Below are positions 4,422-53,816 of a stretch of DNA of 55,688 bases, one piece after another. The position numbers were made by a program, and so were the translations under genes. Source of the stretch: a virus; IMG/VR virus record IMGVR_UViG_3300033127_000028, positions 1-55,688 of that record. One strand, given 5' to 3'. The stretch's first letter is position 1; every line of letters begins with the position of its first letter. Below the pieces are notes generated by a model, which did not search any database, was not told where the DNA came from, and was given only the letters and a program-made list of their open reading frames with translations.

Positions 4422-4458
4422 TGTCACAAAAGGTCTAGTAATGTCTAACTAAGGAGGG
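4422..4458 (+). promoter_or_regulatory. Class II phage promoter-like element
   Basis: TGTCACA-N16-CTAACTAAGGAGGG, 17 nt upstream of ATG 4475. Confidence 0.55.
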
Positions 4459-4474
4459 GAGGAGGTGATTTTAT

Positions 4475-4717
4475 ATGAAAGAGTTTAAAAATGCTGATGC
4501 TACTGTAATTGGTGAGATAATTGAGGAAAATGGGCAGTTTGTCAAAGTTAGATCAATTGAAGGATTAAGCTATACTTTGGCTAAGCAGGGATTGTCAGTT
4601 AATGAGCTGCCGCAGGCAGAAAATGTGGAGGATGCAGTTTCTGAGCTGTCTGAGCCTGTGAAACCTGTTAAAAAGGCAAGGAAAAGTAAAAAAGCAGTCA
4701 ATGCTGCTGCTGAATAG
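4475..4717 (+). CDS. Hypothetical protein (80 aa, basic C-terminus)
   Basis: GGAGG RBS and a class II element upstream. Confidence 0.55.
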   Translation: MKEFKNADATVIGEIIEENGQFVKVRSIEGLSYTLAKQGLSVNELPQAENVEDAVSELSEPVKPVKKARKSKKAVNAAAE

Positions 4718-5280
4718 ATTGGGGATAAGTGGAGAAGGCTCATGCTTTCTCTGCTTTTTTGTATCAGTGGCTGTAACACAAAGCCTAAGAATAGGGGGTA
4801 TCTTTTTGACTGGGGGGAGGGGGTAAAGTAATTTTTCAAGTTTTTTAGACAGCTTGAGCCTTAGAGAGGCAAGGGATACAAGCTTTAAAGTACCATCTAC
4901 AAATATTTATCTACAGCAAGGTACTTTATTTCTTATTGTTACAGTTACCTATAGTAGTGAGAAAAACAGTTTTAAACTTTAAAAAACTTATAACTGTTAT
5001 AAACAGTATAAGACTATAGATAATAATTATTAATAAATATAAAGGATTAGTCAGGTATGTACTTTGTTTAGGCTGCTGTAGCAGTACATAGAAGTGAGAG
5101 AGGGAAAGGCTCTTTAGAGGGTTATCAGCCTCCAATTAATCTCTCTCTATTGTCTCCTATTGTTTACCTCTAAAGGGTCATTTCTTGAGTCTGATGGTGT
5201 CATTATGATGCTGTCAGGCTTTTTTATTATTGGGAAAAAACAACAAGCATACTCTACAGTGTTTTTGAGAAGTTTAAAGA

Positions 5281-5706
5281 ATGATACACAAAACACACAA
5301 AGGAGTGCTAGTGGTGAAAGATACTAAACCTTTTACAAATGGTCAGGGGATAATATCTGTTATATCAATGCCAGTGGAGGATGCAACTGCACAAGACTAC
5401 ATTGTTGCTTTGGCTAATAAGACTAAGGATTATACTGTAACAATGATAAAAGTAAAAGAGGATGGTGTAGGAACAAAACTACCTAGCCCAGTGGGCTTTA
5501 ATTGTGATTTACCTGAATGTGCAGACTGCACAAAACAAGGTAAGTTTGACTCTATATTATACACAACAAGTGAAGAGCCGCCTTTTGATCTTTGGGTATT
5601 TGCTCATACAGATAACCCTGATAAACCTAGTGGTTGGGGAGGTCCTGTTAGAATCACACCAACCAGTGATTATGGAGGCTCTGTAGTTTGCTTAGATATA
5701 AAGTAG
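5281..5706 (+). CDS. Hypothetical protein (141 aa)
   Basis: Open frame followed by a hairpin and T-run. The start is uncertain (an alternative GTG lies after AAAGGAG). Confidence 0.45.
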   Translation: MIHKTHKGVLVVKDTKPFTNGQGIISVISMPVEDATAQDYIVALANKTKDYTVTMIKVKEDGVGTKLPSPVGFNCDLPECADCTKQGKFDSILYTTSEEPPFDLWVFAHTDNPDKPSGWGGPVRITPTSDYGGSVVCLDIK

Positions 5707-5867
5707 AAAGAGTCACCTTTAGGGTGGCTTTTTTATTTACCCTTATATCCAAGATTCTTAGAGATCAGGTCTCTGATAAATGAAGGCAAATGGAGGTTAT
5801 ATCAGGAGCAAGTTGATTTTTTCATCTTGGGTTTTATGTCTCACTGTGGCAAAGCTTTAATTTAAAA

Positions 5868-5977
5868 GTTAAATGCCAGTAAATGAGTGAAATAAATGGA
5901 TGTTAAATGGCAGTTAAATGCCTGCTACATAAGGGATTGATACAAGTTTAATTACAAGTTAAATGGCTGTTAAATGA
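5868..5977. repeat. Array of five GTTAAATG(G/C/A) iterons
   Basis: Copies at 5868, 5902, 5913, 5958 and 5969 form two pairs spaced 11 bp apart, plus degenerate copies. The array is upstream of the HTH gene at 6048. Confidence 0.7.
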
Positions 5978-6047
5978 CAGTGGATATACAGCAAGTTTCT
6001 GTAAGGCAAGAGAGGAAAACATACAAGAAAAGGGGAGTACAGATAAC

Positions 6048-6437
6048 ATGAGAAAATCTAAAAAAGTATTAAAGCCTGAGCAGTACAAGGCAATAGCCCT
6101 CATGGTATACAAGGATGTTAATGGGCTTACTAATGAAATGATTGCAAAAGAGGTGGGGGTCAATCCAAGTACCCTGTATGAATGGAAAAAGGGGGAGGCT
6201 TTTAACAATGAGCTGCTGAAACAATCAGAGGAGGTACAGAGGAGCTTCCTAGCAGACACCTACACACAGTTAAGAGTGATCATTAACAGTCCTAATGTAA
6301 AGCCTGCCAATAAGTTAAAGGCTATTGAATTGGTACTCAAGAATCAAGGCAGACTTAAAGAAGTACAAGAAGTCACACAGACTACTGATGAGAAGTCACT
6401 GCAAGATATTCTGTCTGAGCTTCAAGCAATTAAATAA
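6048..6437 (+). CDS. HTH DNA-binding protein, small-terminase-like (phBC6A51-type HTH)
   Basis: LKPEQYKAIALMV...TNEMIAKEVGVNPSTLYEWKKGEAFNNELL is an HTH pattern typical of small DNA-packaging or regulatory proteins. Confidence 0.4.
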   Translation: MRKSKKVLKPEQYKAIALMVYKDVNGLTNEMIAKEVGVNPSTLYEWKKGEAFNNELLKQSEEVQRSFLADTYTQLRVIINSPNVKPANKLKAIELVLKNQGRLKEVQEVTQTTDEKSLQDILSELQAIK

Positions 6438-6449
6438 TATTATTAAAGG

Positions 6450-6477
6450 CAGAGCTTAAATGCTCTGTCTGTTTTTG
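6450..6477 (+). terminator. Rho-independent terminator
   Basis: CAGAGC-ttaaat-GCTCTG followed by a T-rich run. Confidence 0.65.
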
Positions 6478-6479
6478 TA

Positions 6480-52344: not shown

Positions 52345-52365
52345 GGGAAACCCTGCCTTTTTTAT

Positions 52366-52403
52366 TGTCACAGTTGCAATACTTTTGTTCTAACTATGGA
52401 GGG
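52366..52403 (+). promoter_or_regulatory. Class II phage promoter-like element (variant -10)
   Basis: TGTCACA-N17-CTAACTATGGAGGG. Confidence 0.5.
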
Positions 52404-52417
52404 AAAGGGGGGAGTAT

Positions 52418-52792
52418 ATGACTTTGATCACTTTAGATCAGCTTATTGATCAGGATGCTCTAGTGATACCTCAAGCAGATGCAGTGCTGTCCTCCACTGA
52501 AATAAAGGAGGGGGCTAGGTTTGACAGTAGGGGAGGGGTGTACACCTTCTACAATAAATACTTAGAGCCTTTATATATTGGAATATCTGTAAATGTAGGT
52601 AAGAGAGTTATGGAGCACTTTGATACTCCTAAAGGAAATAAAGACTTATGCCACTATATCAAGAGAGAGCCTGTGTATGTTTCAGTGTTTTATGAGGATA
52701 GGAAAACTTATCAAGACATTTATGAGAGCTATTTGATACAGACAATGAATCCTAGATTTAATGTGGACAAGACAGGGAGGAAGAAGGTTTGA
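52418..52792 (+). CDS. GIY-YIG nuclease
   Basis: GVYTFYN...PLYIGISVNVGKRVMEH...N. Confidence 0.65.
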   Translation: MTLITLDQLIDQDALVIPQADAVLSSTEIKEGARFDSRGGVYTFYNKYLEPLYIGISVNVGKRVMEHFDTPKGNKDLCHYIKREPVYVSVFYEDRKTYQDIYESYLIQTMNPRFNVDKTGRKKV

Positions 52793-53076
52793 CAGAGCAA
52801 TTAGAGTTATTTGAGGTTACTGTGGAGCAGGAACAAGTGCAGGCATCTAAGCCTGTAGCTATCTTTGAAGAAGGTAACAGGGTAAGAGTAAAGAATGCTA
52901 AGGAGCTAGACTCTCCCTGTGTGGAAACTGTTTCATATCTAACAGACTACAGGTTTGGTGGTAAGGTTGGAACAATTAAAAGAGTGCAGGTGGGAACAGA
53001 AAGTGTGTCTTATGAAGTATTGACCACTATAGGCACTGCCATAGTCACTGAGGAAGAAGTAGCATTTATTAGTTGA
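52789..53076 (+). CDS. Hypothetical protein (95 aa, TTG start)
   Basis: Overlaps the upstream stop. GGAGG lies upstream. Confidence 0.4.
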   Translation: MTEQLELFEVTVEQEQVQASKPVAIFEEGNRVRVKNAKELDSPCVETVSYLTDYRFGGKVGTIKRVQVGTESVSYEVLTTIGTAIVTEEEVAFIS

Positions 53077-53133
53077 TTATTACCTGTATAAAAGTTACAC
53101 TATCCAAGAATACAGATAAATAAAATACAGGAA

Positions 53134-53589
53134 GTGGAATACTTGGAATCATTACAAGAAAATATGTCAGGATTAACACAGTACAGTACTGCTGAGGAGT
53201 TAAGAGCCAGTTTCCCTAAGAATGTCACAATGATGGTTAAGGGCTGCTTTAAAGCTTTGAAAGATGAGCAGTTAAATGATGAGGTATTTTTAGGTGCTTT
53301 CATTGGTAATGTGGTAGGGATTAATGTTGTGGGTACTAAGAAAGATGCAAGCTCCACAGGGATTATGGCTATTTCAAATAAAAGACTTATCTTTATTGGG
53401 AAATTAGCATGGATGACAAAAGTAGAGGCAATTGCATGGAAAAACTTTGACTCTTACTCAGCCCAAAAAGGCATGATGTTTGGTGAGATAACTGTCATGA
53501 GCAGAAGTGGTCACAGACTTAAAGTCACTTCTATAGATAAAAAAGTTTGGACAGAAGGTAAACAGATTTTAGATGCATTAGTGAATTAA
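53134..53589 (+). CDS. Bacterial PH-domain (YokE-like) protein
   Basis: ISNKRLIFIGK...GEITVMSRSGHRLKVTSIDKK pattern. Confidence 0.35.
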   Translation: MEYLESLQENMSGLTQYSTAEELRASFPKNVTMMVKGCFKALKDEQLNDEVFLGAFIGNVVGINVVGTKKDASSTGIMAISNKRLIFIGKLAWMTKVEAIAWKNFDSYSAQKGMMFGEITVMSRSGHRLKVTSIDKKVWTEGKQILDALVN

Positions 53590-53738
53590 TAAGGGGCGGG
53601 TGGCTATCAATTGGCTGCCCTTCCTTTATCTGTAGCATAAGGGGGGAAATTTAGAGTTGATTTAAGCATAAAGGTGTATGAGTCAAAGTTGTTGAGGTTT
53701 TTTTTAGTGAGTTTGAATAGAAATTAATGCCTACATAA

Positions 53739-53761
53739 GAGAGCCTTTGGCTCTTTTTTTT
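53739..53761 (+). terminator. Rho-independent terminator
   Basis: AGAGCC-ttt-GGCTCT followed by T8. Confidence 0.7.
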
Positions 53762-53780
53762 ATGCTTTTTTTTTAATGGC

Positions 53781-53816
53781 TGTCACACTTTTTCTGAACC
53801 ATCTAATTAAGGAGTG
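53781..53816 (+). promoter_or_regulatory. Class II phage promoter-like element (variant)
   Basis: TGTCACA-N15-CTAATTAAGGAGTG. Confidence 0.5.

Follow-up and report, generated by a model that had tools for sequence, protein, structure and literature searches.

The stretch of DNA analysed here, IMG/VR virus record IMGVR_UViG_3300033127_000028 over its full 55,688 nucleotides (nt; hereafter the window), reads as the genome of a temperate tailed phage of Bacillus, whose relatives carry siphovirus-type tail genes. It holds thirteen copies of a two-block DNA element, TGTCACA followed at a short distance by the 14-mer CTAACTAAGGAGTG or a close variant of it, and a gene for a divergent protein of the sigma-70 family (open reading frame (ORF) 39028-39765). 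Here, we describe, using weight-matrix scans, profile and fold searches and a comparison of related loci, how the thirteen elements very probably constitute a phage-specific class of promoters that would be read by this sigma protein together with the host core RNA polymerase.

The window has a G+C content of about 39%, and its bases 55634-55688 are identical to bases 1-55, which makes it a circular assembly of 55,633 bp (or one with a short terminal repeat). On the circular assembly the groups of copies at 34-55 kb and at 4-8 kb fall into one continuous non-structural arm, which the copies span from 34.4 kb over the junction to 8.4 kb. Besides the genes with coordinates in Table 1, the phage encodes RuvC, a Cas4-like nuclease, a thymidine kinase (TK), a deoxynucleoside kinase (dNK), a family A DNA polymerase (PolA), a nucleoside deoxyribosyltransferase and two tRNAs, tRNA-Arg(CCU) and tRNA-Trp.

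Thirteen copies of an oriented two-block element

The exact pattern TGTCACA-N{13,19}-CTAACTAAGGAGTG is found in eight copies (7194, 8322, 39752, 41817, 43303, 45414, 47939 and 50251), and 100 dinucleotide-preserving shuffles gave no match to it. The five other copies (4422, 7533, 34441, 52366 and 53781) have TGTCACA intact and one or two mismatches in the 14-mer. In its full form the conserved element is TGTCACA(G/C)TT ... (T)CTAACTAAGGAGTG(A/T)A, slightly longer than in the preliminary description of this DNA, which was made from the letters alone. That description had suggested building a weight matrix; a two-block matrix built from the thirteen copies scores them at 36-47 bits, far above the best site on the minus strand (4.4 bits), with the next site, at 35656, at 26 bits, and oriented matches recur in related loci. 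As had been claimed, there are thirteen copies, each recovered where it had been reported, all on the plus strand and all intergenic apart from the one at 39752, which overlaps the last codons of the sigma gene. The matrix scan also agrees with the claim that the structural and lysis block at 11-34 kb is free of copies, and an orphan downstream block is likewise absent from that region.

All thirteen copies are co-directional with the genes downstream of them. Eight (7533, 8322, 34441, 41817, 43303, 47939, 52366 and 53781) lie within about 50 nt 3' of a terminator-like hairpin with a T-run, in keeping with the earlier statement that most copies stand behind terminators. Two further copies, 7194 and 45414, begin at the first base after the preceding stop codon, and 4422 and 50251 lie in divergent intergenic regions, beside the minus-strand Rap and XRE repressor genes respectively. 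In 12 of the 13 copies a likely start codon, with a ribosome-binding site (RBS), follows the 14-mer after 15-41 nt, where 15-45 nt had been given; the exception is copy 39752, which stands 213 nt upstream of two tRNA genes. The terminator hairpins themselves fall into sequence families with 71-88% identity (6444-6478, 7493-7527 and 47898-47932, also 13593-13624 and 23869-23900), so that terminator-promoter junctions may have spread as units.

The gap between TGTCACA and CTAA measures 16 nt in seven copies, 15 nt in three and 17 nt in three, and from hexamer to hexamer (TGTCAC to TAACTA) the spacing is 17-19 nt. The -35/-10 architecture put forward in the preliminary description is thus retained, its spacing of about 17 nt having been slightly low. 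A -10-like block, CTAA(C/T)TA, is present in every copy in the window, and none has the CGT core that marks the -10 element of sigma factors of the extracytoplasmic function (ECF) type. A Shine-Dalgarno-like purine block (AAGGAG, ATGGAG or AAGAGG) is seen in 12 of the 13, and the central C of TGTCACA is strand-invariant in all thirteen copies as well as in all relatives.

Promoters of the main host sigma factor, sigma-A, follow the consensus TTGACA-N16-18-TATAAT, whose -10 hexamer has A as its second and T as its sixth base. TGTCAC and TAACTA fail a scan against this consensus, as had been expected of them; matches of 9/12 lie near only 2 of the 13 sites, and their total over the region is at the shuffle expectation. 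The near-identical spacer noted earlier for two of the copies is confirmed: GTTGCAATACTTTTGT(T) is common to 50251 (50258-50273) and 52366 (52373-52389), with unrelated flanks. Read on the minus strand, the shared spacer at 50251 holds TTGCAA and TAGACA, -35-like hexamers that face the XRE repressor gene. The sharing may stem from duplication of a promoter or from a divergent promoter or operator that overlaps the spacer.

The sigma-family protein and its related loci

By profile, NCBIfam and fold evidence, ORF 39028-39765 encodes a divergent sigma-70-family protein. An exhaustive search with hidden Markov models yielded 16 homologue clusters at E <= 1e-10, and the family alignment comprises 19 members, of which 12 match Sigma70_r2 (best 1.5e-7), placing the sigma-2 homology at the level of the family, and 14 match the NCBIfam sigma70-ECF model TIGR02937 (best 3.9e-10). 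On the window protein the TIGR02937 alignment runs over residues 30-232 and covers profile positions 3-164 of 165, the architecture of sigma-2 plus sigma-4. A profile of five homologues found sigma factors only among PDB sequences (SigI6, WhiG, SigK and SigW), aligned over region 2, and the top 50 Foldseek matches of the AlphaFold2 model are all sigma factors with 235-308 aligned columns, the best being sigma-32 (E = 3.7e-5). Group 3 sigmas (sigma-32, SigB, SigS) are the best matches by fold, and sigma70-ECF is the best NCBIfam model. A homologue from Bacillus paralicheniformis, 62% identical, is annotated 'sigma factor' and carries PF04542.

The C-terminal helix A-T-x-R-K-(K/R)-K-S-R-A, typical of region 4.2, is almost invariant in the family, with R219, K222 and R224 invariant in the 19 sequences; in the window protein it reads ...ATARKKKSRA.... 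ECF sigmas consist of sigma-2 and sigma-4 only, joined by a short linker, and have about 170-220 amino acids (aa). The window sigma is longer than a typical ECF sigma, with 245 aa and a linker of roughly 50 residues. A tblastn search with it against 50,697 phage records, a set that presumably includes SPO1, returned no match at E <= 1e-3, and a search of the GTDB representative genomes with the alignment of close homologues returned no related locus.

We compared the window with 12 related (pro)phage loci, from B. paralicheniformis, Neobacillus vireti, four IMG/VR contigs, several SRA/JGI metagenome contigs and phage PK2, the sigmas of which range from 62% identity to profile-only similarity. 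The gene order lysis, HTH_36 protein, DnaB, primase, sigma, RuvC, TK, dNK, PolA is common to all 12, and in every one of them the oriented element fronts non-structural genes, co-directionally (plus/minus-strand counts 7/0, 7/0, 9/0, 6/0, 8/0, 5/0, 7/0, 3/0, 5/0, 4/0, 5/0 and 12/1). Where single loci have to be told apart, they are given by number (L101 and so on). The 60-kb prophage of Bacillus pumilus 15.1 (PMC8347963) was considered as a further relative and set aside, since its genes are ordered differently and its primase gene is not followed by a sigma gene.

The putative -35 block tracks the region-4.2 helix of the sigma. It is TGTCACA(G)TT in each lineage whose helix reads R-K-x-K-(S/Q/E)-R-A (RKKKSRA in the window); L252, with the helix RSQKRRA, has TGGCAC in four of four copies, and L255, with RAKKKRA, has TG(C/T)AAC in five of five, in the arrangement TG(C/T)AAC-N17-CTAA. 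CTAA follows 16-18 nt past the -35 hexamer in every lineage but PK2, which has eight copies of TGTCACA-N16-CGTTG, among them one upstream of its own sigma gene and one upstream of PolA. The 10-15 nt after CTAA are near-identical within a genome and differ between lineages, mostly ending in TG(A/T)A (Table 1). At the position of AGGAG the relatives have TAGAAGTGA, GGTAGTTATGTAAG, TACTAGGGTGTAAG, GGTAGTTATG, TTGTATGACG or CTCGTTG, and since AGGAG is conserved in no related lineage it is a peculiarity of the lineage of the window. The preliminary description had seen in AGGAGTG an imitation of a Shine-Dalgarno sequence, and within the window the likeness stands; given the relatives, AGGAGTG would be better read as a segment between the -10 element and the start site than as a translational signal under conservation.

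The element and the sigma also occur together. Across 2.9 million IMG/VR contigs, only four have at least two matches to TGTCACASTT-N11-15-TCTAAYTA (7-9 each), and these are exactly the four that encode a sigma homologue. In the GTDB representative genomes most matches are single and chance-like; multi-copy clusters of the full element lie in Bacillaceae, among the matches listed, and three such clusters (L151, L166 and L193) carry homologues of the phage TK, dNK and PolA and of neighbouring genes. Further members of the family are suggested by motif clusters in the genomes of Anoxybacillus, Ectobacillus and other Bacillaceae. The earlier proposal of the phage sigma as candidate reader accordingly gains from the profile and fold evidence and from this co-occurrence and co-variation. 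The exact 14-mer CTAACTAAGGAGTG gave 90 single, unrelated chance matches in IMG/VR, a search made uninformative by the lineage-specificity of the 14-mer, and a literature search (TGTCACA, TGTCACAGTT) found no description of the element.

Two groups of sites stand apart from these. Upstream of the lysis cassette, three relatives (L092 at 3527, L091 at 3523 and L095 at 3402) have an imperfect -35 block, TGTCTC, with a good downstream block, TCTAATTATAGAAGTGA, and this variant has no equivalent in the window. A Bacteroidota genome, Mucilaginibacter sp. SG564 (L177), has five close sites of the form TGTCACAsTTT-N-GTGTCTAA in an 8-kb stretch without phage-gene homologues, possibly an unrelated regulon of the ECF type.

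The degenerate copy at 35656 may be either a relic or an internal promoter of low strength. At the equivalent position inside the gene, L100 has a match of the TGTCACA type (6747), and L101 (6863) and L102 (1652) have versions with mismatches. Towards its 3' end, the TK gene of relatives contains copies as well (L094 at 14466, L095 at 15666, L100 at 17061 and L101 at 15954).

How does one copy come to lie within the sigma gene? Within 39748-39765, the last codons of the gene, ATG TCA CAG TTT TAA, are at the same time the -35 block of copy 39752, TGTCACAGTTTTAA. Ten of the 12 related loci likewise have a copy across the 3' end of their sigma gene; in L252 it lies just past the stop codon, and PK2 has none there. 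In those ten loci the sigma ends in (L/M/V)SQF or YCHIN, and the SQF tails are encoded as xTG TCA CAG TTy TAA. The serine of the tail is always TCA, and the serine of KSRA varies between AGC, TCA and TCT. In L253, TGTCACA is read in another frame (...Y-C-H-I-N-stop), and in L252 the promoter is displaced to just beyond the stop codon, with a peptide tail of another sequence. The frozen serine codon, the frame change and the shift together indicate that the DNA element is what is conserved and that the 'SQF' tail is its by-product, so that a regulatory DNA element fixes the C-terminal residues and the codon choice of its own proposed reader.

The transcript predicted for this copy (39786-40000) would have a G-rich hairpin, GGGGGC-AGTAA-GCTCCC, at its 5' end; a stretch that contains CCTCC comes next, and about 170 nt rich in A and T separate it from the tRNAs. 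Most relatives have a hairpin a few bases past TGwA, with differing sequences. Such a recurrent hairpin would fit, without proving it, a start site in or next to TGwA, and its role could be that of a small RNA or of a stabiliser of the 5' end.

Table 1. Positions in the window of the element copies, the palindromes upstream of the sigma gene and selected genes, with the -10-to-start blocks of the window and its relatives
Feature	Position	Strand	Remarks
Copy 1, TGTCACA-N16-CTAACTAAGGAGGG	4422..4458	+	36.1 bits; beside Rap gene; 17 nt before ATG 4475
Copy 2, exact	7194..7230	+	43.9 bits; after stop of ORF 6903-7193, before ORF 7254-7508
Copy 3, CTAACTAAGAGGTG	7533..7569	+	39.0 bits; after terminator 7493-7522; before phrog_1843 gene, likely ATG 7597
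Copy 4, exact	8322..8359	+	40.3 bits; after terminator 8287-8309; before ORF 8383-9180
Copy 5, CTAACTAAGGGTTG	34441..34478	+	40.5 bits; after terminator 34403-34426; heads replication operon (HTH_36 protein, DnaB-like helicase, primase)
Copy 6, exact	39752..39788	+	Overlaps 3' end of sigma gene; before leader, tRNA-Arg(CCU), tRNA-Trp and ORF 40259-40957
Copy 7, exact	41817..41853	+	44.9 bits; after terminator-like hairpin; before Cas4-like nuclease and RuvC genes
Copy 8, exact	43303..43339	+	44.5 bits; after terminator 43265-43292; before TK/dNK operon
Copy 9, exact	45414..45449	+	47.1 bits; after stop of ORF 45192-45413; before PolA
Copy 10, exact	47939..47974	+	45.2 bits; after terminator 47901-47924; before ORFs 47993-49650
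Copy 11, exact	50251..50287	+	46.1 bits; divergent from XRE/CI-like gene 49705-50142; spacer as copy 12
Copy 12, CTAACTATGGAGGG	52366..52403	+	42.1 bits; after terminator 52340-52357; before ORF 52418-52792
Copy 13, CTAATTAAGGAGTG	53781..53816	+	41.3 bits; after terminator 53737-53757; before ORF 53857-54213 and nucleoside deoxyribosyltransferase gene
Degenerate 14th copy, TGTCACAGTTTTAAATCACTTTCTAATTGAGAGGAG	35656..35691	+	26 bits; inside ORF 35315-36103 (second replication gene)
Divergent sigma-70-family gene	39028..39765	+	245 aa; proposed reader of the element
Four palindromes	38742..38988		38742, 38778, 38908 and 38973; in 450-nt gap upstream of sigma gene
Large serine recombinase	110-1642		
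HicA/HicB toxin-antitoxin pair	1765-2321		
Small ORF 3' of Rap gene	2956-3192	-	Could encode Phr peptide
Rap-type regulator (RapH_N + TPR)	3233-4321	-	
HTH_Tnp_1_2 protein	6048-6437		
Small serine recombinase/invertase	10413-11171		Head of terminase/structural block
HTH_36 protein	34507-35325		Replication module, with DnaB-like helicase and Toprim primase
XRE/CI-like repressor	49705-50142	-	
-10-to-start block, window			CTAACTAAGGAGTGwA
-10-to-start block, B. paralicheniformis type			CTAAyTAwrGArrTGAAA
-10-to-start block, L101 and L102			CTAATGrTAnTyATGTAAG
-10-to-start block, L104			CTAATTACTAGGsTGTAAG
-10-to-start block, L255			CTAATTGTATGACGAAG

Putative operators and the proposed regulon

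A second repeated sequence in the window, the 16-nt palindrome TTACAsNNNNsTGTAA, occurs 12 times against 0.8 expected; the positions include 123, 1714, 2376, 10351, 54980 and 55021 as well as the four upstream of the sigma gene. Strong sigma-A-like promoters (10-11/12, with TG) lie at 80, 1713, 2375 and 10350, and in the strongest of them, 1713, 2375 and 10350 (TTTACA-17-TATrAT, with an upstream TG), the palindrome overlaps the -35 element. A 67-nt cassette consisting of an A-rich tract, TTTACA, the palindrome and TG-n-TATGAT is 94% identical between 2353-2419 and 10328-10394, where it precedes ORF 2479-2835 and the gene for the small serine recombinase; a third, looser copy at 1659-1745 precedes hicA. 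Upstream of the sigma gene the palindrome is found in most relatives as well, being weaker in L102 and only half-site-like in PK2. The palindrome probably serves a phage repressor as operator, and the four palindromes before the sigma gene would be operators that gate the expression of sigma and hence the whole regulon.

The structural and lysis block (10.4-34.2 kb), which lacks the element, is preceded by the operator-bearing sigma-A-like promoter at 10350. ECF sigmas commonly come with an autoregulated sigma operon and a co-transcribed anti-sigma factor. The window sigma is not visibly autoregulated, there being no copy of the element upstream of its gene; L101 and PK2 do have one. The Rap-type regulator and the possible Phr ORF beside it suggest a quorum-sensing input. 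No candidate for a phage-encoded RNA polymerase was found: the long ORF of 786 aa is the family A DNA polymerase, and the long ORFs of the structural block were not scanned individually.

What is then the most plausible reading of the element? It exists as a bipartite, oriented and conserved sequence with a defined placement at the heads of operons, and it co-occurs and co-varies with a protein of the sigma family. We infer sigma-DNA contacts, start sites, timing and sigma dependence from this as follows. The helix-turn-helix of sigma region 4.2 would bind the -35 block TGTCACA(G/C)TT, and region 2 would recognise CTAACTA, 16-18 nt 3' of the TGTCAC hexamer, in a geometry of the ECF type. Transcription would start about 6-9 nt beyond, within the conserved (G)TG(A/T)A or directly behind it, which would leave AGGAG between the -10 element and the start site and not as a ribosome-binding signal. 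Upon release of the operators, host RNA polymerase would make sigma, and sigma would in turn switch on 13 terminator-insulated short operons (a 'middle' class) with genes for replication, recombination and nucleotide metabolism, tRNA genes and accessory genes, with the structural and lysis block controlled separately from this sigma regulon.

Several points weigh against this reading. Its support is comparative and computational throughout, and the co-variation between -35 block and helix rests on two deviant lineages only. Taken by itself, the window protein matches no Pfam family at E <= 0.01: it scores 14.8 bits against Sigma70_r2 (E = 0.025, cut-off 24) and 18.8 bits against TIGR02937 (cut-off 42.9). 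Its AlphaFold2 model is mediocre, with a predicted local distance difference test (pLDDT) value of 70 and a low-confidence, mostly unstructured segment with two short helices at residues 109-157. The CGT core that canonical ECF -10 elements have is missing from CTAA. Known sigma contacts do not account for the full length of the conserved -10-to-start block (about 17 nt), for which another factor that co-evolves with the sigma, or a function at the 5' end of the RNA, may be responsible. In principle, a non-sigma protein travelling with the phage family could give the same co-occurrence.

The length of that block leads to an extended form of the sigma reading, in which the sigma, alone or with a second co-evolving phage factor, reads a contiguous block of about 17-19 nt, and in which AGGAG might also serve in ribosome docking at mRNA 5' ends in this lineage. 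The block has diversified by lineage (CTAACTAAGGAGTGAA, CTAATGGTAGTTATGTAAG, CTAATTACTAGGGTGTAAG, CTAATTGTATGACGAAG and CGTTG). We consider this extension possible, though unlikely; were it true, the phages would hold a natural library of mutually orthogonal sigma/promoter pairs, with recognition reaching beyond the contacts of sigma-2, region 1.2 and the core recognition element.

The same relatives bear on a role in RNA, where the downstream half CTAACTAAGGAGTG would act as a stabilising Shine-Dalgarno (STAB-SD) or polypurine 5' stabiliser or as a processing site, alone or beside a promoter function. AGGAG is not conserved in them, although in the window AAGGAG(T/G)G does resemble the Bacillus Shine-Dalgarno consensus and a second, correctly spaced RBS follows in 12 of the 13 copies. 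The upstream half, situated behind terminators or in coding DNA in differing frames, gives no consistent RNA part, the spacer is unconserved and without pairing, and Rfam at gathering thresholds matches nothing in the window beyond the two tRNAs. The ECF-type geometry puts AGGAG upstream of the start site; were initiation to occur 3-4 nt further upstream than proposed, part of GGAGTG would be transcribed, and the hairpin near the 5' end after the sigma-gene copy in most relatives suggests that 5'-end stabilisation matters there. On balance, a role of the downstream half in RNA seems quite improbable; a secondary one for AGGAG at the RNA 5' end, in this lineage, may nevertheless exist.

Could a host sigma of the alternative, ECF type read the element, the phage 'sigma' having another role? 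The phage would then be borrowing the promoter type of a host stress regulon. The geometry and the -35 variants (TGTCAC, TGCAAC and TGTAAC) are ECF-like, Bacillus SigM and SigX use -35 elements of the TGCAAC/TGTAAC type, and the window sigma gene has no copy upstream. However, the -35 variant shifts together with the recognition helix of the phage sigma, the multi-copy clusters in IMG/VR occur only in contigs that have the phage sigma, and phages whose hosts are closely related have different, lineage-specific -10-to-start blocks; CTAA is also not known as a Bacillus ECF -10 element. We hold a host reader to be very improbable.

Least probable of all is a two-part site for a phage DNA-binding regulator, an activator or a repressor, working with the host sigma-A polymerase: TGTCACA is a 7-bp near-palindrome (TGT-C-ACA) that a dimer could bind, the phage encodes several helix-turn-helix proteins (HTH_36, HTH_Tnp_1_2 and XRE) and the long downstream block could be the site of a second protein, but no sigma-A-like -10 element is suitably spaced (a 9/12 match within 100 nt is missing at 11 of the 13 sites), the central C does not change with the strand and the whole element is strictly oriented, the spacing hexamer-N16-18-CTAA is of the sigma type and the PK2 version is a textbook ECF promoter. 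Three other candidates were rejected: a TnrA/GlnR box (TGTNAN7TNACA), for which an inverted repeat TGTCAC...GTGACA is found only in the sigma-end copy of some relatives (e.g. L092); a sigma-54 promoter (TGGCAC-N5-TTGCA), the spacing of which is wrong; and replication iterons or packaging sites, which fit poorly with copies that strictly follow the direction of the genes and stand at the heads of operons.

The sigma-read promoter class would give this family of temperate Bacillaceae phages, which is widespread but unstudied, a regulatory map that can be tested; we found members in Bacillus safensis, B. paralicheniformis, Neobacillus and metagenomes. A 59-kb JGI contig and a B. safensis chromosome contain PolA and ORF 39028-39765 in exact or near-exact copies. 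Standard Pfam annotation overlooks this sigma family, and several homologues are labelled 'hypothetical'. Its three -35 variants and at least six -10-to-start variants are possible orthogonal expression switches in Bacillus, and features of note are the long lineage-specific -10-to-start block, the diverged -35/helix pairs and the promoter embedded in the last codons of its proposed reader.

Comparison with known systems

Phage SPO1 likewise combines Bacillus phage sigmas, Gp28 (middle) and Gp34 (late), with a two-block phage promoter class before the next temporal genes. Its Gp28 promoters (AGGAGA-N17-18-TTTNTTT) and Gp33/34 promoters (CGTTAGA-N18-GATATT) are both unlike the window consensus, and in the tblastn search of 50,697 phage records its sigmas showed no detectable sequence similarity to the window sigma. 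SPO1 is a large virulent myovirus, whereas the window phage is temperate, with a genome of 55.6 kb, an integrase and a repressor, and its proposed sigma regulon, unlike that of SPO1, excludes the structural genes. In the SPO1 cascade the phage sigmas redirect the host core RNA polymerase away from sigma-A promoters to successive gene classes (PMC13401047).

Escherichia phage phiEco32 also pairs a phage-encoded ECF-like sigma with a phage-specific motif: its gp36 belongs to the ECF family, and the motif lies 6-8 nt upstream of several operon start sites (PMC4281155). The phiEco32 middle/late promoters have a single -10-like block, tAATGTATAtA, in contrast to the two blocks of the window with their invariant -35 and 15-17 nt spacer; host phylum and phage type are different, and no homology between the sigmas was detected. 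In the Bacillus subtilis prophage PBSX, the repressor Xre holds off the group IV sigma-like Xpf, which activates phage operons (PMC10141391; PMC8347963). The window similarly has an XRE-type repressor and a sigma gene behind conserved palindromes that are putative operators. Compared by description, Xpf has about 170 aa and drives the late structural operon, and the window sigma has 245 aa and would drive 13 non-structural operons.

When 10 kb of the window were compared by Megablast with the phage collection, the only match was to 43 nt of a tRNA gene in cyanophages, which indicates that no isolated phage is close. The nearest phage PolA sequences are those of Clostridium phage vB_CtyS-FA67 (48% identity) and Bacillus phage PK2 (44%; OM112210.1); PK2 is the nearest isolated Bacillus phage found, vB_CtyS-FA67 being higher by PolA identity. 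PK2 has an annotated 'RNA polymerase sigma factor' after its primase gene, which aligns with the window sigma in hhalign with a probability of 91% (E = 1e-6). The copy upstream of its own sigma gene suggests autoregulation, and none overlaps the sigma stop codon. Our literature search found no paper describing the promoters of PK2.

A likeness at the promoter level comes from a bacterium. For RpoE9 of Sinorhizobium meliloti an ECF promoter TGTCACA-N16-CGTC has been predicted, with a mapped start 9 nt downstream (PMC3616915). Its -35 heptamer and 16-nt gap are identical to those of the window element, which places the -35 block and spacing of the latter within the ECF type, and TGTCACA-N16-CGTTG of PK2 is nearly the same promoter. 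The window and most relatives, unlike RpoE9, have CTAA(C/T)TA in place of CGTC, followed by 8-12 further conserved, lineage-specific bases. Set against these systems, the window most likely represents a familiar phage-sigma strategy carried out by a previously undescribed sigma/promoter pair.

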